Below, in pieces: positions 232-53,847 of a DNA stretch of 64,000 nucleotides. Positions within the stretch are counted from its first letter, which is position 1; each line of letters starts with the position of its first letter. Under the pieces are notes generated by a model. It ran no database searches and was not told where the DNA came from. It saw only the letters and a program-made list of their open reading frames with translations. Source of the DNA: a virus. The translations under genes and the position numbers were made by a program. Location: IMG/VR virus record IMGVR_UViG_3300042938_002732, positions 1-64,000 of that record; one strand, 5' to 3'.

Positions 232-256
232 AGGTTGACCGCTGCCGTGTGGGGGT

Positions 257-499
257 ATGAGCACGGACTGGCTGGAGATTTATAGGGACTACTCGGGGGA
301 GGAGCTTGAGGTGGAGATTACTCGCATGAAGCAGGAAGCGACGGTCTATCTTTCGCAGAATATCGCGGACAAGAGTTATCAGAAGTCCTTGGACGAAGTG
401 CGGAACCGGCTCCATGCGGCGATCCGTGTGCGCAATGAGCGGCGGTATCGGGATGTGCCGAGCTGGGGTGTGCCGGACTTCTCGGGTGGCATTCATTGA
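257..499 (+). CDS. probable gpW-like head-tail adaptor / head completion protein
   Basis: 80 aa, helix - 'SQNIADKSYQK' hairpin - helix layout typical of lambda gpW-like proteins; lies upstream of a lambda-type portal; GTTGAC 17 nt before ATG. Confidence 0.55.
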   Translation: MSTDWLEIYRDYSGEELEVEITRMKQEATVYLSQNIADKSYQKSLDEVRNRLHAAIRVRNERRYRDVPSWGVPDFSGGIH

Positions 500-515
500 C
501 AGGATTTCGGGTTGT

Positions 516-698
516 ATGGAAAAACGACTCGAAGGTGAAGACAAGGTGCGGATGCTGGAGCGCGAGATGCGGCAGTCGCCTTCGGGTGGCGCGGCGTGTC
601 CCAAGTGCGGGGTGCAGGTGCGCGATCCCTTCGGGGGCCGTCTGGTGATGCACGATGTGCCGGGTTGCCGTGTGGTGAGGGCGGATTCCAAGGGCTGA
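516..698 (+). CDS. small putative zinc-finger protein
   Basis: In-frame ATG in ORF 414..698; CPKC...H...C; ATTGAC 15 nt upstream. Confidence 0.55.
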   Translation: MEKRLEGEDKVRMLEREMRQSPSGGAACPKCGVQVRDPFGGRLVMHDVPGCRVVRADSKG

Positions 699-702
699 CA
701 TT

Positions 703-1227
703 ATGGCGGACCGTCTGTGTTTGTGTGGAGTGGCTGGGGCTGGCAAGTCGGCTCTGGCGAGGGTGCTGGCTCGGGACTATGGGTATGAGTTGGTAAAGTT
801 TGCGGACCCCCTCAAGGATATGCTGCGGGTGCTGGGCTTGGGGGCTGACGAGTTGGAGGGCGACAGAAAGGGTGTGCCGAGCGATTTGCTCTGCGCGCAC
901 ACGCCGCGCTGGGCCATGCAAAGTCTGGGCACGGAGTGGGGCCGTATGCGGATCGGTGAATCGCTGTGGGTCGATGCGTGGCGTCGGCGGGTCGAGGCGA
1001 TGCCTGCGGCGAAGATCGTGGTGGATGACTGCCGATTTCCAAATGAGTTGGAAGCGGCGAGGGTGCTGGGCTTTGTGCCCGTGCGGATACGGCGCGAGGG
1101 GGCGCGCGTGCATGGGGAGCGGCATCTCTCGGAGTATGCGCTGGACGAGGTGTGGATGCCGGAGTTCCTCAACGATGGGGCGCCGGAGGCTTTGGCACTC
1201 AACATACTGGGTCTTTATGAGCATTGA
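703..1227 (+). CDS. deoxynucleoside monophosphate kinase
   Basis: P-loop GVAGAGKS, FADPLK, PRWAMQSLGTEWGR, DDCRFPNE, HLSE motifs of phage dNMP kinases. Confidence 0.9.
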   Translation: MADRLCLCGVAGAGKSALARVLARDYGYELVKFADPLKDMLRVLGLGADELEGDRKGVPSDLLCAHTPRWAMQSLGTEWGRMRIGESLWVDAWRRRVEAMPAAKIVVDDCRFPNELEAARVLGFVPVRIRREGARVHGERHLSEYALDEVWMPEFLNDGAPEALALNILGLYEH

Positions 1228-1405
1228 TTTTTCTGTGCGGTTGGTGCTGTGTGCGAACGGGGTGGCCGTGGGGCCGCGCTTGCACAGGGACAAGCCATTC
1301 CCCCGCTATGAGTTGAGCTATCCCGATACGCCCGAGGGCCGTGAGCGGGCGGTGGCGGACCTGGCCCGCATCCAAAAATATGTGGAGGATTATGGAAAAA
1401 AGTAA
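1217..1405 (+). CDS. hypothetical protein
   Basis: In-frame ATG overlapping the kinase end; tight gene packing. Confidence 0.6.
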   Translation: MSIDFSVRLVLCANGVAVGPRLHRDKPFPRYELSYPDTPEGRERAVADLARIQKYVEDYGKK

Positions 1406-4122: not shown

Positions 4123-4279
4123 AAAAACAGCACAGGATTTTCAACAAATTTGAGAGCAATAACGTGGCAATGTGGCGGAATGACCCTTGGCAGGGTTTCA
4201 TCTGGTCAGCATAAAGCCATTTCCGTAACCACATAAAATCGGGAACTCTCATTCCTTGTTGACTGCAAAATTTGGGCGC

Positions 4280-4453
4280 ATGAGCGACGAATATCCCAAG
4301 TGGGTCTGTATGGACTGCGGCAAGAAGCACGGGCGCAAGATTCCCGAGGTGGCGAGTTGGCACTATGGCAAGTGTGATGTGTGCGAGAAAAATCATCCCG
4401 TCAGCGAGCCCCGTGACTTCGGGCATTTCCACCGCTGGTTCCGCAAGAAATGA
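4280..4453 (+). CDS. small zinc-finger protein
   Basis: CMDC...CDVC; GTTGAC 16 nt upstream of ATG 4280. Confidence 0.65.
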   Translation: MSDEYPKWVCMDCGKKHGRKIPEVASWHYGKCDVCEKNHPVSEPRDFGHFHRWFRKK

Positions 4454-4743
4454 ACTGCCCTGAATGCGGCGGCGATACGCGGGTGGTCGATAGCCGTCCG
4501 CACAAGGAAGGTGTGTGGCGGCGGCGCAAGTGCGCGGCGGGGCACCTCTCCTACACATTGGAATGCCAAGCGCCCGCTCCCGCAAAACGTCTGCCGAAGC
4601 CTCCCGCAAAGCCTAAAGAGCCCAAGCCTTTGCCCGCGCCAAAGCGCAAAGCGCAAGTCGCTCCCCCTGCGGAGGACTGGAACTTGAAGGTCACGGATGC
4701 CACGCCGCTATGGGTGCGCTCGATGGCGATGAAGCTCGGTTGA
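4450..4743 (+). CDS. NrdR-like N-terminal zinc-ribbon protein
   Basis: MNCPECGGDTRVVDSR...RRRKC...YTLE matches the NrdR Zn ribbon; no ATP-cone. Confidence 0.75.
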   Translation: MNCPECGGDTRVVDSRPHKEGVWRRRKCAAGHLSYTLECQAPAPAKRLPKPPAKPKEPKPLPAPKRKAQVAPPAEDWNLKVTDATPLWVRSMAMKLG

Positions 4744-4761
4744 CCGCCATGCGCTGTGGGC

Positions 4762-5298
4762 ATGGGGATTCAGCACAAAGAGAGATTGCGCGAGTTGGCA
4801 GAGGTCAGCAGGGAGTTCGGACTGCTTGGACACCCGCTCAAATACTCGCGCCCATACATTTATGGAGACCATAGCCTGCCGAGGGGGAATGGCGAATACG
4901 AGGCGCCCGAGGCATTTCGGCTCACCAACCAAGGGGAAAGTTTCGCTCCCGGTCAAGAAGAGGCAATAGCCAAAGCCAGAAAGGGCGGTGCGATCTCTGT
5001 GGGGCTCAAGAAGACCACAAAGGGAGGGTGGCGGTCGATTGCTGAAGCAAACGGCCTCACCCGCGCGGCGGATATGAAGCACAGCGTGCTCAGGCACGAA
5101 ATCGTCCACTCGATCCAGAGGGCGAAGGCGGCATCCCAAGGGCAATCTTATGTGAGAAACATGATGAACCCCGTCAAGCGATACATCGCCGAGGTGGGCG
5201 CTTACGCCACGCAAAACCGAAGAAGACCCGGCAGAAGCATCGTGGAACGGCTGTTCCCGACATTCAAGGCCATGCTTAGTGCGAGGAGGTCGATGTGA
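4762..5298 (+). CDS. motif-tagged cargo protein with HExxH metallopeptidase-like module
   Basis: N-terminal HKERLRELAEVSREF; HEIVH followed by EVGAY; GTTGAC 17 nt upstream. Confidence 0.7.
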   Translation: MGIQHKERLRELAEVSREFGLLGHPLKYSRPYIYGDHSLPRGNGEYEAPEAFRLTNQGESFAPGQEEAIAKARKGGAISVGLKKTTKGGWRSIAEANGLTRAADMKHSVLRHEIVHSIQRAKAASQGQSYVRNMMNPVKRYIAEVGAYATQNRRRPGRSIVERLFPTFKAMLSARRSM

Positions 5299-6692
5299 TG
5301 ATTAACCACGGACGCAGAGGACACGGGTTGCGGGAATTCGCCCGTAGTGGGCGTCTGGTCGATGTTAATAATGCTGCTGCGGCTCGAATCAGTTTTGGGA
5401 CTGTAAAGAAGGCACTGAGGTGGTTGCGGGGAAAAAATCCTACTGCCACGCGCACTCGCAAGCCTGCCCCTCTTGGTTATGGTGTGGGAAGCAGTGCTTA
5501 TTATGATACAGATAGCAGAGTGATAGGGGTGCCTCGCAACTATCGGCATGGATCACCTGTTATTTCAGCACTGCATGAGCATGGGCACGCGGCCGATCAT
5601 GCGATTACGCATCGCGCTTTAACTCTTGTAGATCGGTTGGCAAATGGTGGATTACCAAATGCTAAGGGGCAAAGGGTTGTGCAAAAAACGGAAAAACGGG
5701 CAAATCGCGAAGTGCTAAAGGCTATTCAAGCAAACGGGTCGGCTGCGGAGGCGCTTGCGTGGAAGCAAGCGGCGAACCGGCAAATGCACAAAAATCGGAA
5801 CAACCATTTGCAAATGACGCATATCAATCTCCAAGGAGGGCTTGGAGCTATGGGGCAAGCCGGATTTAAGCCGTTAAAAGAAATGCCGCTTTCCTATAAA
5901 AAGCACCTTATTCAAACAAACTCTCACTTGCAAAAGTCGAAGAAATGGGAACTGGCGATTGATCGAGACAAAGCAAGATTGCGCGAGTTGGCACAGGTCA
6001 GCGGGCGGTTGGTGGAGTTTTCCGTAGCCTGGGCGCGGCGCTTGAAGAGCTTAAAACCCGAGACGGTGCAGAGATTAAAATCTGGGCTCGACAAGAAAGG
6101 TTTGCCGCTGATGCGCGAGCAGACTCGGCAAGTGGGCGGGCAGCTTGGCGAGGGCTTGGATTTCCGCACCTATGAATCCTTTACCCCTCAGCGGGGGCAT
6201 ACGGTCACGAAGGTTCTTAAAGAGCAAATGGGGGATCCGCCTCTGCCTCTCAAATGGCCCACGCCACCCGCAGTGGTTTCAGCTCTGGATAGAACGAAAA
6301 AAGCCTGGGCGGCGGTGGCGGCATCGCCCGCTGGCGCGCACGCGGCGCTGCCTGTGAGCTGGCACAAGGCGGGGTATGTGCAGGATCGCATGGTTCGCGT
6401 TCGTCCGGGCAAGGCTATCAATCAAGATTTCTTCGATAAAATAACTCCCTTCCCCAAAGTCGACCTCATTGCCAAATACGGTGCGGATGGTATCCGCTTA
6501 TTAAAGGAATCTGGCGGTCGGAAGGCGTGGTATAAAGTCCCCAAAGGCGCGATCGACTCGGAGCTTTATAGTGATGCGCAGCCGTGGCTGGGGCGAAAAG
6601 TGTCTGTGCAGGCGCACAACATCATGTTCGACCCCCGCCGTGGCAAGCGGAAGTTGGTTTTGACCGATCCGTTGGGGCAGGTATCCCGTTGA
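5295..6692 (+). CDS. two-module cargo protein (HExxH module + kinase-like module)
   Basis: LREFA near the N-terminus, KARLRELAQVSGRLVEF in the middle; HEHGH...EKRAN; LGEG, VTK, AHNIM, LTDP. Confidence 0.7.
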   Translation: MMINHGRRGHGLREFARSGRLVDVNNAAAARISFGTVKKALRWLRGKNPTATRTRKPAPLGYGVGSSAYYDTDSRVIGVPRNYRHGSPVISALHEHGHAADHAITHRALTLVDRLANGGLPNAKGQRVVQKTEKRANREVLKAIQANGSAAEALAWKQAANRQMHKNRNNHLQMTHINLQGGLGAMGQAGFKPLKEMPLSYKKHLIQTNSHLQKSKKWELAIDRDKARLRELAQVSGRLVEFSVAWARRLKSLKPETVQRLKSGLDKKGLPLMREQTRQVGGQLGEGLDFRTYESFTPQRGHTVTKVLKEQMGDPPLPLKWPTPPAVVSALDRTKKAWAAVAASPAGAHAALPVSWHKAGYVQDRMVRVRPGKAINQDFFDKITPFPKVDLIAKYGADGIRLLKESGGRKAWYKVPKGAIDSELYSDAQPWLGRKVSVQAHNIMFDPRRGKRKLVLTDPLGQVSR

Positions 6693-6710
6693 CTAGTCCG
6701 CAATGAGCGT

Positions 6711-6833
6711 ATGAACTTTCTTGGTCGAGGACACAAAGCAAGATTGCGCGAGTTGGCACCGGTCAGCAATTGTCGATCTTACACAAAGGCCCGGATACGA
6801 AGTTTCCTACACGCGCCAGCGTTGATATGCTAA
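6711..6833 (+). CDS. 40-aa mini ORF or relic: duplicated portal start fused to cargo motif
   Basis: Translates MNFLGRGHKARLRELAPVS...; its upstream region is a near copy of the portal upstream region. Confidence 0.45.
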   Translation: MNFLGRGHKARLRELAPVSNCRSYTKARIRSFLHAPALIC

Positions 6834-6885: not shown

Positions 6886-6920
6886 GAATCCCCGCCCGTT
6901 GACTGCTCCGCAATGAGCGT

Positions 6921-8639
6921 ATGAACTTTCTTGATCGAGCGGTATCTTTTTTTGACCCCGAGGCTGGGGTAAGTCGGGCGCAGGCGCGGGAGCGGTTAAA
7001 GGCATTTGGCTATGATGCCGCTCAGCCTGGCACGAATCGCGGCGGCAGTGGCGGCAGGCAGAAGAACTCCTCCTCCGAGACATGGCGGATGCAGCGGGAT
7101 CGTCTTGTGCTCATGTGGGATGCGCGCGATGTGGTGCGGAATTTTTCGATCCTGCGCGGCATCATTTCGCGCATCGTCCAATACACGGCGGATACGGTTC
7201 AGTATGTTTCTCAAACGGGCGATGAGGAGATCGACTCGATGTATCAGGATTATTTCCATGTGTGGTGCGAGCAGGCGGATATCACGGGCCGTCACCGGCT
7301 CGGGGCTCTCGTTTCCATGGCGATGTGGAGTTTGCTGGTGGATGGCGACCACGGCTGGCACTTGGTGGAGATCGATGAGGGCGGCAAGAAGCAACTCCGC
7401 ATCCAATCCATCGAGGCCGACCGCATCGGGGATCCGAACAATCCGATGAGTCCAGGGAACAACAACGACATCGGCGGCATCATAGTGGACGAGATGGGCA
7501 GGCCGCTCTCCTATCGCATCTTCAAGCGCGAGCGGCGCACGGCATTGTATTCCTTTGAGCGGGAGATTCCTGCCGACCAGTTCATTCACATTTTCGACCC
7601 CATGCGGGTGGATCAATACCGAGGTGTCACGGCGCTCTCGACGGTGATCGCCCCCGCGCGGGATTTGTATGAGGTGTATCACTTTGAGAAGCTCGCCGCC
7701 AAGTGGCAGGTCGGCCATGCGGGATTCATCAAGGTCACAGACCCCACTCGCCGCGATGGCGGCATCTCGGCGTGGAATGGCACTAAGGACAACCGCCCCG
7801 ACTCTCCTGGCACGATGGCGATGGAGGCGGGAAAAATCCAGCGTCTCTCGCAGGGCGAGGACATCCAGTTCGCCCCCGGCACGAACCGCCCGAGCGGAGC
7901 GTTCATGGCGCTGGTGCAGACGATGGTGCGCGAGATCGCCAGCGGGCTGAATATGCCCTACGGGTTCCTCTACGACATGACGGCGTTCTCGGGTCACACG
8001 GGCCGCATCGAGATCGCGCAAGCCATGCGCTCGATCCGCCGCTACCAGAAGCTTCTTAGCGAGAAAGCCCTCGACCCGCTGCGTGATCGGGTGATCGGCC
8101 TCGGCATTTCCATGGGCGAGTTGCCTCCGCATCCGCAGTGGCGCAATGGCCGATGGGGCTTTGGCCGCTCGCTCACAGGCGATTATGGCCACGACACTTC
8201 GGCGAATCTCCAGCTTCTCCAAGCTGGACTCGTCACCGCGAGCGACCTCATCGCCGAGACAGGACAATCTTTCGAGGAAGTGGTGCGCCGCAGCGCCAGC
8301 GAAGTCGCTTACCTGCAACGGGTCGCCACTGAGACAGGTGTGCCGATCGAACTCATCAATCAACGCCTGCCTGGGCCGACTCAAGCCCTCGCCGCCATGG
8401 CCGAGCCGCCACAGCCGCCGCCACCTGGCCTCGTGCCGCAGGGCTTGGATGTGAAGCCGCTCTTGGAGCTTCTGAAAAATGTGGGCGAAGGCATCTTGGA
8501 TCGCGAAAGCGCGATTATCAATTTGATGAACCTGTATGGCGTGGAGCGCAATGCGGCGGAGAAGATGATCCCCGATGGGCCGAAGGAGAAGAAGGGATTG
8601 ACCACAGAGGACACGGAGAACACGGAGGGGGAGAAATGA
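6921..8639 (+). CDS. portal protein, lambda family
   Basis: ARDVVRN, DITGR, IEADRI, GGIIVDEMGRPLSY, FIHIFDPMRVDQYRGV, REIASGLNMPY are lambda gpB-type motifs. Confidence 0.92.
   Translation: MNFLDRAVSFFDPEAGVSRAQARERLKAFGYDAAQPGTNRGGSGGRQKNSSSETWRMQRDRLVLMWDARDVVRNFSILRGIISRIVQYTADTVQYVSQTGDEEIDSMYQDYFHVWCEQADITGRHRLGALVSMAMWSLLVDGDHGWHLVEIDEGGKKQLRIQSIEADRIGDPNNPMSPGNNNDIGGIIVDEMGRPLSYRIFKRERRTALYSFEREIPADQFIHIFDPMRVDQYRGVTALSTVIAPARDLYEVYHFEKLAAKWQVGHAGFIKVTDPTRRDGGISAWNGTKDNRPDSPGTMAMEAGKIQRLSQGEDIQFAPGTNRPSGAFMALVQTMVREIASGLNMPYGFLYDMTAFSGHTGRIEIAQAMRSIRRYQKLLSEKALDPLRDRVIGLGISMGELPPHPQWRNGRWGFGRSLTGDYGHDTSANLQLLQAGLVTASDLIAETGQSFEEVVRRSASEVAYLQRVATETGVPIELINQRLPGPTQALAAMAEPPQPPPPGLVPQGLDVKPLLELLKNVGEGILDRESAIINLMNLYGVERNAAEKMIPDGPKEKKGLTTEDTENTEGEK
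8601..8627 (+). repeat. short ACCACAGAGGACAC element, copy 2
   Basis: Encodes TTEDTENTE at the portal C-terminus, just before the MKEF start. Confidence 0.8.
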
Positions 8640-11433: not shown

Positions 11434-11483
11434 GTGCGATCAGAAATGGGCGGTTGAGGCTGTTGACGCGGAGGTTGCTGGGT

Positions 11484-14400
11484 ATGAGGCATGAATTCAA
11501 GTCTTATGATAAGACTGGCGACGAGGAGCGGCGTGATTTTTTGAGGGCAGGAATTGTCGGCGCTGGGCTGACGGCTGCTGGAGGTTTGGCGGGATTGGGG
11601 CTTTATAAGGCGGGAGTGAGTGCGGCGGCGAGGAATGCGGCTCAACTTGGTGGCGAGTTGAATCGCGCCAAGAAATCTCTTAAGGGCATCCGCGACTGGA
11701 AGCTCGGGAAAGCTACAACAGCAAGAGCAACAGCGACTGGGCAGAAATCGGTCTATGAGAAGGCAGCTTCCAAGTTCTACGCGAATGGCGGTGCGTTTGA
11801 TAAGCATGTGAACGCTGTATCCCGAGCGCAAGCCGCCAAGGCAAAGGCAGCGGCTAAGGCGACGAGGGATGCCGCAAAAGCTGCGAAGGAGCAGGCTGCT
11901 CAGGCGCCGCCTCCTCCTACACAAGCCGCTAATGCAACAACGATTCCTGAAGCTATTTTCAAGCCTAAGGCCGCTCCGCTTAAGCCAGCTCGAACCTATA
12001 AAACTTGGGCGCTTGCCAGGAGGGCGCTTAACAATAATGAGATAACTCAAGAGGAATTCGATCTGATGCAATTTTCGGTAGGCCGTCGCGATCTGGCGCG
12101 TATGCGCTACTTCAACCAGCTTCAAACCGACGAGGGGGGCATCCCCCTTACGGGGCGTGTGCCTCGCGATCGCTTCGTGAAGAAGATCCGCGATGAGGAC
12201 TTGGATCGCCGCGATGCAAATATCCTGCGCGCTGGTGGTGCGGGGGCGCTGGCGGGTCTTCTGGCACGTGGCCGGATCGGCGCGGGTAAACGGGCATTGA
12301 TCGGGGCGGGGGCTGGCGGGCTTGGTGTGGTGGGAATACGGCAGATCACGAATAACGACCGCGACATCTACGGCGAGCGCAATCGCGGCAGCAAGCGCGC
12401 GGAGTTGCTCCCCGCCGTGGGCGGACTCGGCGCAGCGGCTTGGCTGGCGGGTAAGCGGCTGAAGGCGTTTGCGAGGAAGTTTAACCACAGAGGACACAGA
12501 GAGCACGGAGGAGGGGTGAAGGAATTTACAAGGTATTGGAACCCATCTATGGGTTGGCCAGCAGAGGCTAATACTCCAGATAAAAAGAGGGGGTGGCTTA
12601 AAGGGTATATACGAAGAAGGCAGTTAGCAAAGGCAGGCATATTCCCAAAGCCGCGCGCTGTTGAAATCACTTCAGGCTATGATGTAAAAACAGGCAAGAA
12701 TCTTTCCTCCCGTCTGCGCGGAGTGAAGAACTTTGACGACTACCGGCTCTACTATTTCAAGGGGCGCAATACGGGGATCGCGGCGAAGAGTGTCGAGGAG
12801 GCTCGCTCGAAAAAGAAGCGCGGCGGCGATGAGTTGGTGGCCGTGCGCACACCGAGCGATTCCGAGAAAAGTCAGATGGCACGTGGCGTGTGGGTTCGCA
12901 CTCGGCGCGATGGCAAGTCGCCCGATCAGTCCCGCTACGGCAAGGGGCGTGGGCAGGGTCCGGCGCGGAAGAGCTTATCCGCGAGGCTGCGCGTCAGATT
13001 TTTCGAGAAGCGGGATCGCCGTGAGAAGCGGGAGTTGAACCCCTATGTGGGGGCGGCTCTCTCGGGCGGCGTGAGTGGGGCGGGGCTCGGGGCATTGTCA
13101 TGGCTAAAGCGTGGCACTTCTGTGGCTTCGGCTGGAGCGGCGGCAGCTAAATTGGGCGCGCTGAGTGCGGGTGTCGTTGGCGGCGGGGCTTTGATCGGGA
13201 GTCGCCTCGTGGGTGATCCTCGTAAGGAGGAGGGTGCGCCGTTTATGAAGCGTGTGGCTTTAGGTGGGGCGATAACCGGGGCTTTGGTCGGTGGAGCAGG
13301 CGGTCTTTTGCTCCGCAATACCAAGCTGGTGCGGGATGCCGCAAAAACATGGCGCCCAGCAAAATGGATCATCGATTCTCCGGCTCTCGGGGCTGGTGCT
13401 CTTGGGGCTGCGGGCGGGGCTGTGGTCGGAGCCGCGCAGGGGGCCGATGAGGGGCAGCAGGTTGACTCGATACGCAATCTCCGAAAGGACATAAAGCAAA
13501 AGAATTTTTCCCGACTTATGGAGTTTCGCGCATTCCCCGCACTCGCGGCCAAGCAGGTATGGAAGACTGATCCGGCTCTGCGGGCGGATTTCGCAAAGCG
13601 TGTCGTCGCAAAGGTGAAGGGGGCCGTGGCCGCGAATAAAAAGCAATACGGGGTCAAGGAGTTCCAAGTCTCCCCGCTCAACGTCGAGTCGATGGCTCAG
13701 ACGAAGGAGCGGCGTTCCACCGAAAGGGCGAATTTTCTGAGGGGTATCGGCGCAGCAGCGGCTGTGGGCCTTGCAGGCTTTGGCGGCATCCACATGGGAC
13801 GCATGATGGGTAAGGCACAAGTGCGTGCGGCCAAGAGCGCGGCCAAGGCCGCCGAGTCCGATACGGAGTGGATGAAGATCCGGGCGGACAGGTATCAGGG
13901 TCAGGCGGAGGTGCAACGCCGGAGGGCTGATAATGCTGAACGCCGGTGGTATCGAGAAAATGACTCGACTTCTGGTAGTGCCAGCAGTGGGGCGTCGGCT
14001 TCTGGTAGTGCTAAGGCCAGCAGCGGGTCGGCTTCTGGTAGCGCGAAAGCCAGCAGCGGGTCGAGTTCTGGCTTCGATTGGGAAGATTTATTCCGCACAG
14101 GCGGTAGAAAAAAATCCTACGACGATGACTATGTGCGCCGCAGCCAGGAGGCAGGGCGGCAGAATCGGCAGTCCAGTGCGGGGAGCAATCCCGGAGCGAG
14201 TGGCAAGCCAGGGGCTCAAGGCGTAAAGAATCCCCACGCAGGCACTCCTAAGGCCGAAGCGTGGGAAAAATGGCACTCTATGGATCGTATGGCAAAAGAA
14301 TCCCCACATGAGGGCGAGCGTATGAACGCCGCCATGGCGCGAGACAAGTGGAAGAAACGCTACAATCTGGCTCGCAAGCTTCGTGGCTTGAAGATGTTTG

Positions 14401-20963: not shown

Positions 20964-21206
20964 ATGGCCAAGCGCCCGCGCGAGAAATGCGAGACCCGCG
21001 CAGAGGTGGTGGAGCGTGTCGAGCGGATGCTGGCCGAGCATTTTGATGCGGGCGTGGGCATGGTTTCGTGGGCCGAGGAGGGCGAGACGCAATACCTCAC
21101 ACTCAAATTTGGGAATTCGTTTGCCGTGGAGGGTATGAGCGAGCAACTCCCGATGTGTCTGGAGATGCACGGCGAGGATGAGGAAGAGGACGAGGGCGAT
21201 GGTTGA
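20964..21206 (+). CDS. hypothetical protein
   Basis: Tight packing; its stop codon lies within a GTTGAC box. Confidence 0.65.
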   Translation: MAKRPREKCETRAEVVERVERMLAEHFDAGVGMVSWAEEGETQYLTLKFGNSFAVEGMSEQLPMCLEMHGEDEEEDEGDG

Positions 21207-21223
21207 CGCCTGTGCCGTGTGGC

Positions 21224-27100: not shown

Positions 27101-27125
27101 CCTTTTGTTGACCTGTTGGCTTGAT

Positions 27126-29376: not shown

Positions 29377-29398
29377 GTTGACTCGCCAAATCTGAGGC

Positions 29399-30202: not shown

Positions 30203-30226
30203 AGTTGACCTTGCCGCCTCGGGGAT

Positions 30227-33826: not shown

Positions 33827-33847
33827 TTGACTAAAGGAAAGAGGCAA

Positions 33848-34564
33848 ATGACATCGACAATGCCTATGCGCCTGGGTAATGATGCGCCTGCTTATCTCTT
33901 AAGTGATGAAGCTGATATTGACAATGGCCGCACGATCGTCTGGCGCAAGCAGAAGGTGCTGGGAGCGAATGTTAAAATCACAGCGACAGATCTGGACCCT
34001 CCTAATCCTGGGGTTCCCTGCGGTTTAGTAAGTGTCGGCGTGCAGTGTGATGGGGGGGTGGCGGATATTATCTGGACATTCCGCTCGGAGTGGGGCAAGC
34101 CTTCCTATGAACTGCAAGGCTCCACTGGGCAAGAGCCGATCACGAGCCACCAGAAATACGCTCAACTTTACGAAAAATACGCGGTCACGGAGCGCGGAGG
34201 GGAACCAATATGGATGGAGAAGGATCCCGATGGCAAGAGTCAAGGCACGGGATTGAGTAAGGATGGAGTGGTTGTCTCCAATATAAGCCCGCTTTACGGG
34301 GTGCGGGACTACTTGGCGGCGCAGGCTGTATATCGGTATACAGAATTTTATACAGACAGGGTGAGTATCCCGCAGGACTTGGTGAGCAAGGTGGGGAAAA
34401 TCGATACGCCGAAAGAACTCAAGAACCCTGGTCCTGATGGGAGGTGGCTGCGCTGCGGGGCCAGTATCCGGCAGACAGGAGACGCTTTTCAGGTCACAAT
34501 CTCGTGGATGTGCAGCCAAAGTTCCAAGCCGGAGGGCCTTTGGAAGAGCGAAATTTATGGTTAA
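33848..34564 (+). CDS. tail-associated protein, paralog set X copy 1
   Basis: EPITSH, PLYGVRDYL, VGKID, WL motifs shared with the next two genes. Confidence 0.65.
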   Translation: MTSTMPMRLGNDAPAYLLSDEADIDNGRTIVWRKQKVLGANVKITATDLDPPNPGVPCGLVSVGVQCDGGVADIIWTFRSEWGKPSYELQGSTGQEPITSHQKYAQLYEKYAVTERGGEPIWMEKDPDGKSQGTGLSKDGVVVSNISPLYGVRDYLAAQAVYRYTEFYTDRVSIPQDLVSKVGKIDTPKELKNPGPDGRWLRCGASIRQTGDAFQVTISWMCSQSSKPEGLWKSEIYG

Positions 34565-38379: not shown

Positions 38380-38579
38380 GTCTGAATAAAGATGCCGTAT
38401 CCAAGGTGGAGTATCTCAAGAGCCTGCGTCCGGCGGCGGCGCTGGATGTTGATTTCCCGTTTTTTCATGAGTGGGCGCGGAAGACTGAAAGTTTGGGCGA
38501 TGCGGGGTGGAGCGGTAAGTCTCCTTCTGGCTTCGACCCGGCGTATTATGAGGCCGAAATCTCGCTGCCTCTGCCATAG
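38376..38579 (+). CDS. hypothetical protein
   Basis: ATGA coupling; 67 aa. Confidence 0.55.
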   Translation: MSLNKDAVSKVEYLKSLRPAAALDVDFPFFHEWARKTESLGDAGWSGKSPSGFDPAYYEAEISLPLP

Positions 38580-38600
38580 TTGACGTTTGGTGGGGGCAGG

Positions 38601-41600
38601 ATGGCTTCCAACGAGTATATTTACGCGAACCTCAGCACGCGCGAAGCGACGGGATCGACGGGTTCCCCGCTGACTTTTTCTTGGGTGGCGGGGCAGAGCG
38701 TGTCCTACGCGCTGCGGTTTTTGCAGCGGGATAGTGCGGGAGCGCTTGGTGAGACGGGGCTCGATATCCTGAGTCTGCGCGCAGCGATCGGGCGCGAGGG
38801 GGCTTGGCCCGAGAGCGGGTGGTATAAAATAAAGGTGGGTTTTGCGCCTTCCGACTCCGCGAATACCACGGAGAGAATTGATTTTAATGCCGGGGCGCTC
38901 GATGTGGAGGAGGCTCTCAATGCGCTCACGGGCAAGCCTGCCGAATTCCGCTGCGATGAGGGGGCGAATACCGTCTTGATCCGCCGCGTAGATGGTGGGG
39001 AAGTGACGCTCTCTGTGGTGGGCGATGGGCTGAGGCCGACTTCTTTTGGTAAAATACTTGGCGGCAGGAGATTCCCAGAGCGAAAGGCGCGGCTGTCGCT
39101 GGGTGGTGGCAGTGGATTGACCTTCGTCAGTAGGTTGGAGGGCGAGGCGGGTAATGGGATTTCCGTGCAATATGTGGCTCCGAGCACGCTGAATGCCGCA
39201 ATGTCGGTGACTGTTGCTGGCAACAAGATCACGGTGGGCCTGTCGCGGGCATCGGGGGAGCTTACGGCGACGGCGGCGACAATCAAGGCAGCGGTGGAGG
39301 CCAGTGTGGAGGCGAGTGCCTTGGTGGGGGTGGTGATCCTCGATACGGGGCTCAGTGTTGCGGCGGCGCAGGCCGAGGCATTTCTCTCGGGGGGCATGAA
39401 CCCGAGTGGCTACGAATACTCACTACAGCTGGCTCAGGCACCTGTGGTCTTTACGGACTGGGCAACGCGCAATCTACCGGCCGCGCCGGTCGTAACAAGA
39501 ATTCAAACTGGAGGCCGGGTAGACGCCGGTTTTGTCACTACAATCTGGAATACAATTCAGGCCCTCTCCGTGCCGACAGATTTTCGCGGGGCGTATCAAT
39601 TCAAGCGCGGGCTGAAGCGCTCCTCGCTGGTGAGTAAGGATGATGGCACGGTGGCGATCGCGCGGATTCTCAACGCTCTGCTGGCTGAGGAGGGCGGCAC
39701 TGTGGTGGTGACAAACCCGAACAACAATGTGGCGCATATCGAGTTTGGCGGCACTTTTGCGGGCTACGACATTGCGAATCTGGAAATTGCGGTCTACTCC
39801 ACGCCTCCCCCGGACTATGTTTTCAGTCTCGACTTGGGGAGCGCGGATTTGGCGGAAATGCTGCAGGACAAGGAAAGTGTCACGCTGCCCTTTGAGGTGG
39901 AAGCCACGGTGTGGGAGGATGTGAGCGACCCGACTCTGGGCACGAAGGTCATCAAGCTTTGGAAGACCACGGCGGCGATCAAGCGTAATGTGCTCTGGGA
40001 TGCGCTGGCAGTGCGCCCGCCGATTGATTGGCTGCGCAGGCCCATGCCTGTGGACTATGTGCCGTTCGCGGGCACGCAATTTCTTGTCGGCCAGCAGGCG
40101 GCTTACACGACAGTGATTGGCAACGGGAGCACAAAAGTTTTCTCGGTGGCTCACGGTTTGGGCGGCGGGCTGGAGCAGGTGGGGCAGAGCGTGATTTACA
40201 GGGACGAGGGGGTGGTCTCGGTGGATGTGAGGGAGAACAAGGCCTCGGGTCGCCAACTGCGGGATGATGAGTATGTGCTACGATTTGTCTCGGCGGGCAG
40301 TGTTTCTCTGGAGTTTGACGAGCCGCCCGATGAGGATGGCTTGGTGGTGGTCGTGCTCGGCTACGGGCAGGAAAGCGCCTTTACGAGCCACACGCACCCC
40401 ATCGACCAGATCAAGACAATCGGCTTTGACGGGGCTACTGGCGAGTCGCTGCGCGTGATTTTGGAGGACTTCCAGCGCCGTATAGCGCGCTTGGAACTAT
40501 TGATTCCACGAGGCAGCATAAGCCTCGGGAGTGGGTTGGAGAAGAAAAAGACGCAGATTCCGGCGATCGGCGAGATACTGCCGGATATAGCGATGGAAGG
40601 CGGTGAGGGCGAGCCGCTCTCGCTGGCGAGCCAGATCATCGCGCCCGCGCTCAAAGGCGATGCGCCGAGGGTCGTGGCTGGCACGGAGCTGGAAGACCAG
40701 AAGAAACTTTTCGATGCCGAGTTGCTGCGGGTCAAGGCCGAGGCGGCAGCAGAGCTCAAGGCCGCGCAGGAGGCCGCCAACAAGGCGGCTGAGGAGGTGA
40801 AAGTGAAGGTGGATCAAGAGGCTGCGCAAAAGAAAACCAGCATGATCTCTCGCGTTTCGATCGCCGAATTTGCCACGCGCCTCACGGCGACTGGCACGGC
40901 ATCGCTCGTCGCATTGCCCAATCTTTATCCCTCTATGCGCAACGGCAAATACGCCTGGTTGCTTCCTGCTATTCATGATGCGGTCGCGCAGGATGTGTCG
41001 GCACTGCCGACGGCTGCAGCGGGAAATGTGTATCGCAATGCGGGGTCGCTGCCACTCGTGCTGCCTGGCGGTGGCGGGCGCAAGGGGCAGAGTGTGCCTG
41101 CGGGCGGATTTTTCGGTGGCGACGGGCGCGCTCTCTATGCGCTGCGGCGGGCAGGCACGACCACGAGCTACCACCCGATCGAGATGGAGCGCGAGCTCAT
41201 TCGCTTGGTGGTGCGCGAGGGTCAGTTCCCGCTGGCCTCCGAGTTGAGCCTCGCGTGGCAACTAAATCTTTCCTTCCTGACTGAGACGCTGGTCGCGGGG
41301 GCGGGGTATCTCATGCCGGTAGAGGTGGCTCCCCTCCCCTCGGCCAGCACACCCGCTACCACGGGCGCAAATGTGGGTGCTGTCGGACAGGCCGTGCTCC
41401 TGGCCTCGCCGCGCATCGGATTTTCCAGAGGCGTCTCGGAGACGCGGCAATTCTCGCTCAAGCTCGCTCGCAAGCTCAACGAAAGCGGGCAGCCTGTCGG
41501 CACAAGTCAATTCACCGATTACGTCGAGTCGATCGGGCTGGAATTCCCCCAAGGGGACTTCCTGCTCACTGTGCGCTTGGTGCAATGGGATGTGGATGAC

Positions 41601-42745: not shown

Positions 42746-42767
42746 AGTTGACTATTTGATCGAGCGT

Positions 42768-43574
42768 ATGGCTGTTCCAGTAATCAGTAAGACGGCGGGG
42801 GTGTTGGCTTACGCGGTGGGGCGGGATTTTGTGTTCCAGCTCGCAGCGGAAAATGACCCTGTGGCATGGCGGATCGGGGAAGCGCAGCAATTGCCTCCTG
42901 GGGTGTTTTTTTCGCCGGTGTCAGGCACGCTCTCGGGCGCTGGCACTTCTCCTGGCGTATGGGGACTGACTTTTGTGGCGAGCAATGCGGATGGGGACTC
43001 CTCGCCGGAGACTTTCACGGTGGGGGTCTACGATGTGGGTGGGCAAACGGAATACTCGAAACGGGTGCTGATCAATTTGAAGACGCTGGCGGTGACATGC
43101 GATGACCCGGCGGCGGTGGACTCGGAGAGTGCGCTGGGGGCTGCGGCGGGCCAGGTGCGCTATGGGGATGAGGTGGTTTTCCAGATGGTGTTTACCGATG
43201 GGACGATCGCGGCGGGCACGGGCGCGAGTGCGATCTACTCGGAAATCTCGCCAAATATTCGGATGGCGCGGTTTTCGATGAAGGGGAATGAGACGGAGCC
43301 GACATTTTTTGTGACCCCGCCGCCTGCTTTCAAGCGCAGCGCGGAATATGAGGCAGGTGAATATCGCACGACATATTATGTTTTCGCCCATATCGCGGGA
43401 TCGGCATTGCAGTCGTATCTTGGAGATTTTGAAAATGATGCGGGGACGCAGGCGAATGTGATTTGCGAGTTTGAGATCGAGTTTGACCGCCCGGCGGGGG
43501 CGAGCGGCCCGCTGATAACCCGCGTGACAACCCAACCTTTCCTGCTTCGCGTGAGCAGGGATTTGATCTCGTAG
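42768..43574 (+). CDS. Ig-like domain plus baseplate-upper-like domain protein
   Basis: LPPGV...SGTLSG putative Ig (He_PIG-like) repeat; GTTGAC 15 nt upstream. Confidence 0.65.
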   Translation: MAVPVISKTAGVLAYAVGRDFVFQLAAENDPVAWRIGEAQQLPPGVFFSPVSGTLSGAGTSPGVWGLTFVASNADGDSSPETFTVGVYDVGGQTEYSKRVLINLKTLAVTCDDPAAVDSESALGAAAGQVRYGDEVVFQMVFTDGTIAAGTGASAIYSEISPNIRMARFSMKGNETEPTFFVTPPPAFKRSAEYEAGEYRTTYYVFAHIAGSALQSYLGDFENDAGTQANVICEFEIEFDRPAGASGPLITRVTTQPFLLRVSRDLIS

Positions 43575-43575
43575 C

Positions 43576-46761: not shown

Positions 46762-46785
46762 GTTGACCGCGAGGCGCGGCGGTAT

Positions 46786-47184
46786 ATGAGCGCATTCTCT
46801 GACTTTCTTGAAAACAAGGTGCTGGACCACCTCATGGGCCGCACGACTTACACGGCCCCTGCGACGATTTATTTCGCTCTCTTTACGGCGTCTCCCTCGG
46901 ACAGTGGGGGTGGCACGGAGGCGACCGGTGGGGCGTATGCGCGCGTGGCGGTGACAAATGATGCGACGAACTGGCCTGCGGCGAGTAATGGCATTAAGCG
47001 CAATGCGAGTGTGATCACCTTCCCGGAGGCAACTGGAAACTGGGGCACGATCACGGCGATAGGGATCTACGATGCGGCCTCGGCGGGAAATCTCCTATTC
47101 TGGACGACGATCACGGCCCGCACAGTGGTGCAGGGCGATATTCCTCGCTTCAACGCCCAAGGCATCTCGATCTCGCTGAACTAA
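46786..47184 (+). CDS. conserved phage structural (tail) protein
   Basis: SDFLENKVLDH, ALFTA, GGAYAR, WGTIT..GIYDAA..GNLL pattern common in phage tail regions. Confidence 0.7.
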   Translation: MSAFSDFLENKVLDHLMGRTTYTAPATIYFALFTASPSDSGGGTEATGGAYARVAVTNDATNWPAASNGIKRNASVITFPEATGNWGTITAIGIYDAASAGNLLFWTTITARTVVQGDIPRFNAQGISISLN

Positions 47185-47270
47185 CGCCGGGGAGCCGAAA
47201 AGGCATGACAACCCGCGTGACAACCAAACCCTTCCTGCTTCGCGTGAGCAGGGATTTGATCGCTTAGGAT

Positions 47271-51407: not shown

Positions 51408-51410
51408 GCT

Positions 51411-52754
51411 ATGAGCTGGATTCGCGTGAAGGAGGTGGGGTCGGTGCCTGGCGGGGGAAGTAGATTGGTGCGCTATGAATCGGGCGAGGCGGGAGGGCTG
51501 GATGCTCGTGGGGTATGGGTAGAACAGATCTTGGAGGAGAGGCCAGAAAAGATATATCTTACTGATGAAGTGACTCTTGAGCAAGGCGATTGGGCGAGCC
51601 AGGAGATGGAGGCTCGGGAAAAGAGGGATTTCTGCCCTGAGGTGGCTCAGGAGGTGGCGGATGCGGTGTATCATGAGGGGCTGAGCAGGCCGGTGCGGCG
51701 GGTGGCGTGGGACTTGTGCGATGATCGCCCTGATCTCTGCGGGGTGCTGCCTGCTGGGTGGGGGCCAGGATCTGAGGGCGTGCCGACTCCGACGATTTTC
51801 TTGCAGTCGAATCCTGTGATGGCTGAAAATTGCCTGCCGCTAAATAGGCTGGTGCGGGGTGTGGGGCCTGCGGCTTGGATTGCGCACTTAAAGAATCAAG
51901 GGTCTGTGGTGGCGAATTTTGCTCAAGGTAATGAGGTATTGATGTTCGTGGAATTTGATGGGGCGGGGTCGCTTGCGGGGGTTTTGCTGACGGGCTTGTG
52001 GAGTCCTGCTGATATCGCGACGGGGCTATGGCTGGATGCAGCGGATGAGGCAACGGTGACGCTGACGCTTGATGGTCTTGTATCGCAGTGGGTAGATAGG
52101 AGTGGGAATGGCGTTGTCGTGGATCAGACAAGCAATCTCTTGCGCCCGACTTACGATGGGCAAATTGGCGGGGTCAAGGCGCTAAACTTCCTTGGTAGCA
52201 ATGAATTCTTGGAAGCGCGGAGTTATGTCAAGTCGCCCGGGTTTTACATTATCCTGGTCGCAAAGCATGACCTGAGCCTCCCTGACGCGCCGGTTTTTTC
52301 GTATTTTGATTCAAATAATTCCAATGAGCGTGTAAATCTGAGGTCGCGATCTGGGCGAAGTAGCATGCAGGTGATATCGAGGGGCGTGAATGAGGGGGAT
52401 GGTGATACTGAGGGTTTCTTTCTCTACGATCTCCCAGGGATGGGTCAAGGTTTTGTGCTCTCGATGTCAGATACGGGAGGGGCAGGGTCATTTATCAATT
52501 ATAATGCAAATCAAAAGGTGGCGAGCGGGAGTTTAGGAAGCGAAAGATTGCTGGGGCTGCGAATCGCCAATTCAGTAGGGGCGGCTGGGTCGCTTGGCGG
52601 TGCGCTTGGCGAGTTTATTTTGCTGGACCAAGTGCCGGATGCGGACACGCAACGAAGGTTGGAAGGTTACTTGGCTCACAAGTGGGGGATAGCGGGGCAG
52701 ATTCCAGAGGACCATCCTTACAAAGTAAATCCTCCGACTCCAAGGGCTGGTTGA
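51411..52754 (+). CDS. virion protein with LamG/lectin-like domain
   Basis: LWLDAAD...VSQWVDRSGNG...LEGYLAHKWG...HPY pattern. Confidence 0.7.
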   Translation: MSWIRVKEVGSVPGGGSRLVRYESGEAGGLDARGVWVEQILEERPEKIYLTDEVTLEQGDWASQEMEAREKRDFCPEVAQEVADAVYHEGLSRPVRRVAWDLCDDRPDLCGVLPAGWGPGSEGVPTPTIFLQSNPVMAENCLPLNRLVRGVGPAAWIAHLKNQGSVVANFAQGNEVLMFVEFDGAGSLAGVLLTGLWSPADIATGLWLDAADEATVTLTLDGLVSQWVDRSGNGVVVDQTSNLLRPTYDGQIGGVKALNFLGSNEFLEARSYVKSPGFYIILVAKHDLSLPDAPVFSYFDSNNSNERVNLRSRSGRSSMQVISRGVNEGDGDTEGFFLYDLPGMGQGFVLSMSDTGGAGSFINYNANQKVASGSLGSERLLGLRIANSVGAAGSLGGALGEFILLDQVPDADTQRRLEGYLAHKWGIAGQIPEDHPYKVNPPTPRAG

Positions 52755-52772
52755 CGCCTGGCACTTCTGCAA

Positions 52773-53237
52773 ATGCGCATCTCGATAAATTTAGATACTC
52801 TTGCGGTGGGTGACTCTACGGGGAGCGCCCTGCAAACGCTCTCGACGAGGCGGAGCGATGCCTTCCCTATCCGGTTGGGATTTCTGCAAGGGGGCGTGGG
52901 CAAGGAATTACCGAGCGGCGCGGTCGGGAGGTTGGCTATAAAGAACACCCGTGACTACTCGGGCGTATTGGTGGCGGGAAGTCCGGCTTGGCGCAAGGTC
53001 GGGTATGGGTCTTCGGCATACTATGTTTTCATCTTGAATCTTGCCACGCAGCAGATGGATGAGGCTTTTTTCACCCTTAGCGGAGAGCTCGCCCAAGTGA
53101 GTTTTACGATGGAAATCGAGTGGGCCTATCGTGGCGTGCGTCAAACAAGTCGCCCTGTGGCGTTTGTGGTGGATAACGACTATACCCGCTCCGGCGATGT
53201 GCCTCCCACGCCCATAGCTGGGGCGTCGGGGAGTTGA
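52773..53237 (+). CDS. baseplate-upper-like structural protein
   Basis: Paralog of the next gene (LPSGA, EIEW/ELEW, VxNDY); GTTGAC 17 nt upstream. Confidence 0.6.
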   Translation: MRISINLDTLAVGDSTGSALQTLSTRRSDAFPIRLGFLQGGVGKELPSGAVGRLAIKNTRDYSGVLVAGSPAWRKVGYGSSAYYVFILNLATQQMDEAFFTLSGELAQVSFTMEIEWAYRGVRQTSRPVAFVVDNDYTRSGDVPPTPIAGASGS

Positions 53238-53253
53238 CGTTTGCTGAATCTGT

Positions 53254-53847
53254 ATGCGGATAGCTATTGATCTCGACAGCAGGAGGGTTTTGACGTGGAC
53301 GGGCGTCGCTGTCGAGGTGTTGGCTATGACTTGTCGGGATAAGTTCCCTGTGGATGTGAAGTTTATCAGCTTGGGGAGGTATGTAGATCTTCCGTCGGGG
53401 GCTCTGGGGGCGCTCTCTCTGAAGGTGCCTGGTTCTTGGTCGGGCGTGGTTAGGGCTACGGGAGGTCAGTGGACGAAGACGGGTGTAGGCAAGGACGCGG
53501 TGTATGGATTTTTCCTGCGGCTCGACACGGTTGAGCTTCTGGAGTTGTTTGCCGGTGAACCGAGTAGCGTGGATTTGGCGATGGAATTGGAGTGGTCGTA
53601 TGGAGCTCCTTCCGTGCGCAGCACCTCTGTTCCGGTGCCTGTGGTGGTGTCCAATGATTATATCCGTGAAAACGATGGCGTGCCGGTCGAGGCGATCGAT
53701 CGCAAGGCGACTCAGGCTGAGGCCGAAGAGGGCCTTGTGAACGACAAGTGGATGACTCCGCTGCGTGTGGCGCAGGCGGCTGCGAAAATTTTAGGGGGCT
53801 CCGATGGTTCCGGCGGGATCGCTGTGATCGATGCGGGAGTCTACTAA
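53254..53847 (+). CDS. baseplate-upper-like/fibre adaptor protein
   Basis: KATQAEAEEG...MTPLRV fibre-type motif; ends IDAGVY. Confidence 0.6.
   Translation: MRIAIDLDSRRVLTWTGVAVEVLAMTCRDKFPVDVKFISLGRYVDLPSGALGALSLKVPGSWSGVVRATGGQWTKTGVGKDAVYGFFLRLDTVELLELFAGEPSSVDLAMELEWSYGAPSVRSTSVPVPVVVSNDYIRENDGVPVEAIDRKATQAEAEEGLVNDKWMTPLRVAQAAAKILGGSDGSGGIAVIDAGVY

Follow-up and report, generated by a model that had tools for sequence, protein, structure and literature searches.

Throughout much of this viral genome, start codons are preceded by the hexamer GTTGAC at a nearly constant distance. The question raised is what such a box does: does it start transcripts, or does it help ribosomes to start translation? 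The stretch analysed here (the window, 64,000 nucleotides) belongs to the 95-kb genome of an uncultured phage whose host is probably a member of the Verrucomicrobiota. The first-pass annotation offered two answers, a phage-specific late promoter producing leaderless or near-leaderless mRNAs and a non-canonical signal for translation initiation. As set out below, the evidence favors the former over the latter.

All 17 GTTGAC boxes that had been listed proved right in coordinates and spacer length, and each of their ATG codons opens a coding frame. The two copies with longer spacers and the copy ahead of a non-coding RNA (ncRNA) are also real. The sites are as follows:

234-259 (+), box at 234-239, spacer 17 nt, ATG 257; gene for an 80-aa protein, which in relatives adjoins the portal gene on its upstream side
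4258-4282 (+), spacer 16 nt, ATG 4280; starts a 57-codon Cys-rich ORF
4739-4764 (+), spacer 17 nt, ATG 4762; the TGA within the box is the stop of gene 4450-4743
6688-6713 (+), spacer 17 nt, ATG 6711; 40-codon ORF duplicating the portal N-terminus; the TGA within the box is the stop of gene 5295-6692
6898-6923 (+), spacer 17 nt, ATG 6921; portal gene
11462-11486 (+), spacer 16 nt, ATG 11484; large virion "cargo" protein
21202-21226 (+), spacer 16 nt, ATG 21224; protease/scaffold gene
21743-21775 (+), spacer 24 nt, in-frame ATG 21773 within the protease/scaffold gene
27107-27267 (+), box at 27107-27112; heads an ncRNA about 140 nt long
27309-27334 (+), spacer 17 nt, ATG 27332; single-strand DNA-binding protein (SSB)
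27777-27802 (+), spacer 17 nt, ATG 27800; 10-codon mini-ORF that stops shortly before gene 27835
28572-28612 (+), spacer 32 nt, ATG 28610; Shine-Dalgarno-like GGAGG/AGGA in the leader
29377-29401 (+), spacer 16 nt, ATG 29399; terminator-like hairpin and T-run directly upstream
30204-30229 (+), spacer 17 nt, ATG 30227; 1199-aa protein
33826-33850 (+), spacer 16 nt, ATG 33848; the upstream TAG stop ends on the first G of the box
38579-38603 (+), spacer 16 nt, ATG 38601; 1024-aa protein; the upstream TAG stop again ends on the first G of the box
42747-42770 (+), spacer 15 nt, ATG 42768
46762-46788 (+), spacer 18 nt, ATG 46786; the upstream TGA stop adjoins the box
52750-52775 (+), spacer 17 nt, ATG 52773; the TGA within the box is the stop of gene 51411-52754
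53233-53256 (+), spacer 15 nt, ATG 53254; the TGA within the box is the stop of gene 52773-53237

The ATTGAC at 495, which had been counted as a further box, is doubtful, as one-mismatch variants are not enriched in this phage family. The label "late region" was slightly loose, since the SSB gene and the ncRNA carry the box in addition to what are otherwise mainly virion genes. Reuse of the upstream stop codon was borne out in eight overlaps (495, 4739, 6688, 21202, 33826, 38579, 52750, and 53233), and three further boxes (30204, 42747, and 46762) lie no more than 1 nt from such a stop. As the register between box and stop varies, it is the start codon, not the stop, to which the box is tied. 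Genes 257, 4280, 6921, 27332, and 29399 have a box and no upstream ORF. Most boxes stand within long co-directional gene arrays, a setting that would suit an RNA-level signal too.

The hexamer is not over-represented in the window as a whole (27 copies vs. 21 ± 4 in shuffled sequence), and 26 of these 27 copies are on the coding strand. The positional enrichment proposed in the first-pass annotation is clear: over the first 71 kb, the late arm, an ATG follows at a spacer of 14-18 nt for 18 of the 27 plus-strand copies, against a background of 9.5% (binomial p = 8e-13). GTTGAC is likewise the top hexamer at -26 to -15 of called starts (13/66), the next unrelated hexamer reaching 3. Start codons linked to the box are ATG in 48 cases, GTG in 5 and TTG in 1, with GTG and TTG near chance. 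The signal is limited to one temporal class and one strand. The GTTGAC pattern has a density of about 20 per Mb in Verrucomicrobiota genomes vs. about 280 per Mb on one phage strand, which suggests that the box is specific to the phage and not host-wide.

A profile of 92 non-redundant box sites revealed a signal that extends beyond the hexamer: GTTGAC, 15-18 nt that contain no -10 hexamer, and then GGG-Y-ATG-R. Spacers of 16 nt (n = 42), 17 nt (n = 24), and 15 nt (n = 18) prevail over 18 nt (n = 7) and 14 nt (n = 1). Within these 92 sites no sequence is conserved 5' of the box and no spacer position is conserved; positions -12 to -7 carry at most 0.14 bit of information. By contrast with this empty spacer, G occupies positions -4 to -2 in 66-68% of sites, a pyrimidine position -1 in 86% and a purine position +4 in 89%. 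GTTGAC is enriched 78-fold, whereas all 18 one-mismatch variants give 0-1 matches, the G-U-type variants GTTGAT and GTTGGC among them. All six bases are required.

The same box was sought in related phages, and the layout is kept down to 62% identity of the major capsid protein. Box and spacer length are constant across relatives, which share neither the sequence of the spacer nor that to the left of the box. At the portal gene, 15 relatives have an invariant box and a 17-nt spacer, except that one has 18 nt; the letters of the spacer and the sequence left of the box vary, and changes after the ATG are synonymous. The box also marks the exact left edge of exchanged gene modules and is kept at mosaic junctions. 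The 21202 spacer can form a small covarying hairpin in relatives, although across sites a spacer hairpin is weak and often impossible. At 21743, the box and its fixed 24-nt spacer are conserved at nucleotide level in all relatives, and the in-frame ATG 21773 is possibly a nested scaffold start. One relative (G415) carries an integrase, which indicates that some of these phages are temperate.

As the first-pass annotation had argued, the box does not belong to an ordinary sigma-70 promoter. It shares the TTGAC core of the -35 hexamer TTGACA, but it needs a preceding G, avoids a following A (present in only 2 of 48 sites, with TTGAC invariant), tolerates no degeneracy and has no -10 partner. It stands about 12 bp too near to any possible start site: at normal promoter spacing the -10 would begin no earlier than the ATG itself, and a -35 role would put transcription initiation about 12 nt into the ORF. 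That ATG is where translation truly begins, as the portal protein aligns from residue 1 and changes after the ATG are synonymous. A -10 placed 14-15 bp from the box would read YATGRN, without the T at -7, and matches to the consensus promoter are not enriched (10 vs. 8.2 ± 2.6 in shuffles). The box is not a Shine-Dalgarno site either, being 15-18 nt from the ATG with the G-run only 1-4 nt away. The remark that many box genes lack a Shine-Dalgarno sequence is true of 12 of 17, the other 5 having a properly spaced one. However, its use is low across the whole phage (14/46 non-box genes), so its absence at box genes is not diagnostic.

On balance, we consider it fairly likely that GTTGAC serves late promoters of a phage-specific class as their upstream element, and that transcripts begin on the A of the ATG or no more than a few nt from it. 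The box would then lie at about -22 to -17, and the late messages would be leaderless or nearly so. Each box would open a unit, whose later genes may be translated by overlap coupling or from Shine-Dalgarno sequences. A promoter is favored because the box heads the ncRNA in four genomes and because the signal keeps to one temporal class and one strand. In these four genomes the DNA to the left of the ncRNA box is unrelated and a small ORF at the locus is not conserved; the closing helix of the RNA sets in 15-16 nt past the box, and in this phage it spans 27126-27260 with a run of seven T behind it. The same reading is favored by the Y-R dinucleotide sitting at the ATG, by box-linked starts that are almost exclusively ATG, and by the leaderless -10-to-ATG geometry of early genes of the same phage, in which a TAYNAT hexamer ends 7 nt before the A of ATG (three cases). 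A precedent comes from Akkermansia, where leaderless transcripts make up 10% of the mapped start sites (PMC4782308).

Several observations count against this promoter. Terminators precede boxes in only 1 of 53 cases (29377). DNA opening is left unexplained by the lack of a -10 element, and no characterized promoter is known to us that has a lone hexamer near -20 and lacks a -10. Two further points concern where transcripts begin. Conservation in the ncRNA starts about 7 nt after the box, and a start 16 nt after the box would cut off the Shine-Dalgarno-like GGAG of the long-spacer boxes at 21743 and 68293, which favors a start closer to the box. Both would be accounted for if the box itself took the place of the -10, in a promoter made of one element like the late ones of T4, with a start about 7 nt downstream and leaders of 9-11 nt carrying the G-run; the lack of conservation upstream of the box, as in T4 late promoters, agrees with this. 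We nevertheless regard it as unlikely. A leadered mRNA would not need the tight 15-18 nt distance, the G-run at -4 to -2 is too near the ATG for Shine-Dalgarno pairing, the Y-R preference falls exactly at the ATG, and the Shine-Dalgarno-like motif at 21743 is not kept in relatives. Neither a sigma region 2 nor a gp55-like protein was found. The near absence of terminators could instead mean that GUUGAC acts in the RNA, at -22 to -17, as an enhancer of initiation or re-initiation bound by the ribosome or a phage protein at internal cistrons of long late transcripts. A distance fixed to the start codon and to nothing upstream of it, the eight overlapped stops and the low Shine-Dalgarno use all agree with such a role, and a function in translation was proposed for the analogous start-associated sequences of Cluster K mycobacteriophages (PMC3203893). 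It accords poorly with a box that heads an ncRNA or a gene without an upstream ORF, with the intolerance of G-U-type variants and with the weak spacer hairpin. The box also lies outside the usual ribosome contact zone and, to our knowledge, has no complement in the conserved 16S 3' tail. We judge a role in translation to have a similarly small chance of being right.

Less probable still is that the boxes are operators, or "stoperators", at which a phage DNA-binding protein, for example one of ParB/KorB fold, silences or paces late transcription. Like the stoperators of Cluster A mycobacteriophages, they are asymmetric sites that share one orientation and occupy short gaps between genes, close to stops and starts (PMC3203893). 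Some relatives are temperate, and the protein that co-occurs with the box has a ParB/KorB-like fold, KorB being a repressor. Against this stand the 15-18 nt distance tied to GGG-Y-ATG, the ncRNA headed by a box, and the placement of boxes exactly at the left edge of exchanged modules, as expected for the start of an expression unit; we know of no fixed distance between stoperators and start codons. Finally, the box might guide an enzyme that cuts a fixed distance downstream and frees leaderless mRNAs from polycistronic precursors. Such cutting would account for both the fixed ATG distance and the missing terminators, but box users have no nuclease candidate in common, no RNase that measures off its cut in this ruler-like way is known to us, and the scheme is less simple than a promoter. 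We hold it to be very improbable.

If the box is a late promoter, what would read it? Sigma70_r2 gave no match in six frames at E ≤ 1, T7-like RNA polymerase gave no match, and the DxDGD motif is absent from every long ORF. With no phage RNA polymerase or sigma factor detectable, the reader would most likely be the host RNA polymerase redirected by a phage protein. Only two non-structural genes are common to all complete box users:

62799-63485 (+), candidate reader of 228 aa; ParB/Noc/KorB-like DNA-binding fold, a borderline match
61647-62780 (+), 377-aa protein with no assigned function; adjoins the candidate reader in all three complete box-using relatives

The 62799 family is present in every box-using genome tested, including the distant G416-G418, and absent from five box-less genomes, a co-occurrence confounded by shared ancestry. 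It also accompanies the box in Verrucomicrobiota prophages, where TTGAC(A)-N13-17-ATG is enriched beside it (G256, p = 0.0014; G259, p = 0.027; G081, p = 0.055). The gene itself has no GTTGAC box. The 228-aa model resembles the DNA-binding domains of ParB, Noc, and Spo0J (VIA-align Z 8.2-8.4, rmsd about 4 Å over 106-110 residues; Foldseek E-values of 0.4-0.6), values that are borderline for a helical protein. Its first ~40 residues are short strands modeled with low confidence, and no Pfam match, to the N-terminal CTP-binding ParB_N domain or to any other, was obtained at E ≤ 0.05. ParB-type proteins usually bind palindromes, which counts against this protein as the reader. It is offered only as a lead, the best candidate at present, perhaps together with its neighbor. 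The first candidate, a LuxR/GerE protein (genome positions 71233-71712, minus strand) and itself a clear GerE-domain protein (E = 6e-18), was rejected as reader, since neither GerE nor sigma region 4 has a match in the complete box users G412, G413, and G414. It is conceivable, although we would not call it probable, that a ParB/KorB-fold phage protein acts as a promoter-specificity factor, setting host polymerase on a single 6-bp box at about -22 to -17, without a -10, to start on the A of ATG. If so, a large clade of Verrucomicrobiota phages would make its late genes as leaderless mRNAs by a route unknown for any bacterial polymerase.

No published description matching the GTTGAC box was found in the literature, yet it has partial counterparts. 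The start-associated sequences (SAS/ESAS) of Cluster K mycobacteriophages are likewise asymmetric motifs that share a single orientation and stand a fixed, short way ahead of starts, with strong ATG preference and occasional overlap of the upstream stop; they too are kept across subclusters ahead of unrelated genes, and function is putative in both (PMC3203893). However, SAS is 13 bp long, contains the Shine-Dalgarno core AGGAG and lies 3-7 bp from the start of non-structural genes (PMC3203893), whereas the GTTGAC box, with its 6 bp, stands 15-18 nt from the ATG, has no Shine-Dalgarno sequence and marks mainly virion genes. P1 late promoters have a phage-specific element near -22 in place of the -35 and are spread along morphogenesis genes, but this element is a 9-bp inverted repeat, and P1 keeps the canonical -10 hexamer and leadered mRNAs. 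The late promoters of T4 consist of TATAAATA and use gp55/gp33/gp45. They resemble the box in being a single short and strict element that lacks a second conserved hexamer and recurs immediately ahead of late genes in many copies. AT-rich and placed at -13 to -6, the T4 element is recognized by a sigma-like protein; the GTTGAC word, in contrast, contains GC and is -35-like, and no sigma-like protein was found in the box phage.

Thermus phage Lalka27a has dense late promoters and leaderless transcripts, for which a phage factor was inferred (bioRxiv 10.64898/2026.04.20.719267). In Lalka27a and phiYS40 the element is a -10-type hexamer, TAGGGT, 6 nt before the start site, together with a conserved C at -25, whereas the GTTGAC phage has no -10-like element and its sole strong element is the -35-like word, 15-18 nt ahead of the ATG. 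The Thermus start sites are mapped, those of the box phage predicted. In both, nevertheless, many late promoters, putative in the box phage, follow closely without terminators between them, a short stretch of fixed length separates the start codon from an element specific to the class, and a phage factor redirecting the host RNA polymerase is inferred (bioRxiv 10.64898/2026.04.20.719267).

The phage contig (95,362 bp, 56% GC, with direct terminal repeats; the window is its first 64 kb) carries plus-strand genes from 257 to ~70.8 kb and, at 71-95 kb, early genes on the minus strand. Megablast against cultured phages gave no match at all, and the nearest capsids are 22% identical. The plus-strand landmarks are as follows:

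6921, plus strand: portal
21224, plus strand: protease/scaffold
22959, plus strand: major head protein
27332, plus strand: SSB
43576 and 47271, plus strand: tail proteins
57671, plus strand: holin
68324, plus strand: small terminase
68919 (start of ORF; likely start codon 68988), plus strand: large terminase

The number of GTTGAC copies in the window (27, of which 26 lie on the coding strand) is not above chance, and it is their placement that is non-random. The first-pass annotation had proposed positional enrichment relative to start codons as a check, and such enrichment is present: an ATG follows 14-18 nt downstream of 18 of the 27 plus-strand copies in the first 71 kb, against a background of 9.5% (p=8e-13). 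All 17 GTTGAC coordinates and spacers that it listed are correct. GTTGAC is also, by a wide margin, the commonest hexamer at -26 to -15 of called starts. The box contains TGA, and eight boxes overlap the upstream stop codon while three more lie within 1 nt of it; the register varies, which ties the box to the start codon and not to the stop. Judged from sequence comparison, the box-linked ATG is the real start, because the match of the portal to its PHROG profile begins at residue 1 and substitutions after the ATG in relatives are synonymous. Start codons following boxes are 48 ATG, 5 GTG and 1 TTG, with GTG and TTG at about chance level.

The box is a real and strict signal common to the clade. 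Relatives were retrieved from IMG/VR using the portal and capsid proteins, and in those whose capsids are 96% to 62% identical, almost all GTTGAC copies on the coding strand have an ATG 15-18 nt further on; the annotation had proposed such a look at related phages. Whole-contig scans of relatives gave 10/0, 10/0, 8/1, 11/0 and 6/0 on coding versus other strand, with controls at 0-1. The box ahead of the portal gene shows no variation, and 14 of 15 relatives have a 17-nt spacer there, of freely varying sequence. The DNA to the left of this box is unrelated among relatives, which places the box at the edge of exchanged modules. In the phage under study, ~40 nt comprising box, spacer and first portal codons are duplicated (6688-6730 and 6898-6940); the upstream copy, which leads into a mere 40-codon ORF, was probably left behind when modules were exchanged at the box.

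Across 92 non-redundant sites the spacer is 16 nt in 42, 17 in 24, 15 in 18, 18 in 7 and 14 in 1. In this set there is zero information 5' of the box, and the spacer is GC-rich and holds no conserved hexamer. Near the ATG, G occupies -4 to -2 in 66-68%, a pyrimidine -1 in 86% and a purine +4 in 89%. Start context holds 48 of 129 GTTGAC copies, a 78-fold enrichment, and each of the 18 one-mismatch variants scores at most one hit there. The next base is A in only 2 of the 48, so that canonical TTGACA is avoided. An obligatory spacer hairpin was rejected, since the folding tendency is weak (MFE -2.1 versus -1.4 kcal/mol in shuffles, p=0.002) and many spacers are unable to fold.

At 21743-21775, inside the protease/scaffold gene, a GTTGAC written in the same codons in all relatives stands a fixed 24 nt from an in-frame ATG, and by analogy with lambda C/Nu3 it may be the separate start signal of a scaffold gene nested there. 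At 27800-27832 a 10-codon mini-ORF behind a box stops 2 nt short of the gene 27835 ATG, which may be a leader peptide or re-initiation arrangement. A near-identical 45-nt sequence without a box (43530-43575 and 47225-47270) lies upstream of each of the two paralogous RCC1-like tail genes.

The annotation's view that this is no ordinary sigma-70 promoter was borne out: a -10 hexamer is missing, any usable start site would be ~12 bp too near the box, and consensus sigma-70 promoter matches are not enriched. A ribosome-binding site was likewise rejected, the distance to the ATG being too great for the box and too small for the G-run. Nor is it a host-wide promoter type; 31 Verrucomicrobiota genomes contain the pattern ~20 times per Mb, mainly within genes, a density more than 10-fold below that of the phage.

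Several lines of evidence favour a start signal acting at the DNA level. Downstream of the box at 27107 lies a structured RNA, ~140 nt long with a T-run at its end, for which Rfam gives no family. This box is kept in four relatives, again with unrelated DNA to its left. In one relative, the short GTG-initiated ORF that the RNA contains no longer has its stop codon. The helix that closes the RNA begins 15-16 nt after the box, the distance that separates box and ATG elsewhere. Starts after boxes are dominated by ATG, a Y-R step falls exactly at the ATG of box genes, and the signal is confined to one strand and one gene class. The layout of gene units agrees with this: 17 genes begin with a box, 28 adjoin or overlap the one before them, and 4 follow a gap and have a Shine-Dalgarno (SD) sequence. 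The early genes point the same way. A palindrome, GTCTTAYNATAAGAC, occurs in ~10 copies in the early arm (genome 82-93 kb; loci L018 and L036) and also at window position 11501. In three early genes a TAYNAT hexamer inside it ends 7 nt before the A of the ATG, the palindrome being followed on the coding strand by 1 nt and then the ATG. By its spacing this is the classical leaderless geometry, which suggests that early genes are leaderless and that an operator covers their -10; these elements showed no -35 partner.

Other observations caution against over-reading a DNA-level start. Terminators precede only 1 of 53 boxes (p=0.32), so that a terminator-then-box rule was rejected, and SD use is low across the whole phage. 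SD absence is not diagnostic of leaderless translation, since SD and box are both missing from 14 other genes. One possibility is that transcription starts close to the box, as boxes with long spacers carry an SD-like GGAG and sequence conservation of the structured RNA begins ~7 nt past the box; the points listed here, taken together, also make an RNA-level role of the box possible. On balance we lean, by a modest degree, toward the box being a variant of a phage late promoter that yields leaderless or near-leaderless messages. Separately, T-run terminator-like hairpins at 25019 and 23975 (TTTTTTT then ATG) directly adjoin the next start codon, and the genes that follow must therefore be translated without SD and without box.

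What reads the box was approached through gene content. Neither a sigma region 2 match nor a two-barrel polymerase DxDGD motif was found in the phage, and no T7-like polymerase was matched in a search run without a positive control for that family. A LuxR/GerE protein (159 aa, genome 71233-71712) was attractive for its fold, akin to that of sigma region 4, and for a gene position directly next to the late arm. It was ruled out as general reader since three complete box-using genomes lack any such domain. No enrichment of the box was seen in phages carrying distant LuxR homologues. The phage (G000) and its complete box-using relatives G412, G413 and G414 have two non-structural genes in common, 61647-62780 and 62799-63485, for neither of which a family assignment was found. 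The model of the 62799 family, built from alignment A4, is confident (pLDDT 83), and its residues 40-154 match ParB/Noc/Spo0J/KorB DNA-binding domains at a borderline Z of 8.2-8.4. The family also occurs in the distant box users G416 (12 vs 1), G417 (3 vs 0) and G418 (11 vs 0) and is absent from five box-less genomes. It is found in 3 of 401 Verrucomicrobiota genomes, around whose copies same-strand TTGAC(A)-N13-17-ATG is enriched (G256, 11/56, p=0.0014; G259, p=0.027; G081, p=0.055). As shared ancestry confounds this co-occurrence, the 62799 family is a lead as candidate box reader.

Around the start of gene 61647 and ahead of 62799 there is a cluster of five TGTAACAC copies (window 61424-61627 and 62777). 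As a second start box this sequence was rejected, being a local cluster in this genome only and unconserved in relatives; the copies may together serve autoregulation. A further repeat family, CTCYGTGTCCTCYGTGGT(T/C)AAT, lies at window 6859, 8627 (minus) and 12501 (minus) and genome 80103, 81891 and 90598 (minus), sometimes directly upstream of a box. Related copies occur near boxes in relatives, accompanied by AGTTTTAAG, a repeat that flanks the structured RNA in L019 and L020.

The host is probably a member of the Verrucomicrobiota. A response regulator found almost exclusively in that phylum shares 62-65% identity with the LuxR domain, and the 62799 family is present in Verrucomicrobiota prophages. 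A tail-fibre-like protein (window 56381-57226) contains PATR autotransporter-type repeats (PF12951, E=8e-12), which are associated with PVC bacteria and are a possible host-range clue. Leaderless start sites make up 10% in Akkermansia versus 0.4% in E. coli (PMC4782308), in line with such a host. No prophage relative was found in the genome contigs database, and a capsid search of 401 Verrucomicrobiota genomes gave two weak matches, the better of which (G190) has no boxes. A related provirus, G415 (63% capsid identity), ends in a tyrosine integrase (L156:1-1149) without host flank; on this gene content, part of the phage group is temperate.

If the box proves to be a promoter, it would raise the questions of how polymerase opens DNA without a -10 and which protein reads the box. 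It would also provide a simple sequence rule by which true start codons, late transcription units and the edges of exchanged gene modules could be located in many uncultured phages that probably infect Verrucomicrobiota, and the candidate reader gene would make this rule directly testable.

A literature search found no description of a GTTGAC start box. Neither class-specific late promoters nor leaderless messages are new in phages; the unusual feature is a promoter-like signal consisting of a single invariant -35-like word, ~20 bp from the start codon and without a -10 element. P1 late promoters combine an element near -22, a feature in common with the box, with a -10 hexamer that the box lacks. 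The start-associated sequences of Cluster K mycobacteriophages resemble the box most in appearance, although they lie 3-7 bp from the start and contain an SD. Closest in logic are the Thermus phages, whose late promoters are likewise dense and leaderless but have a -10-type element.
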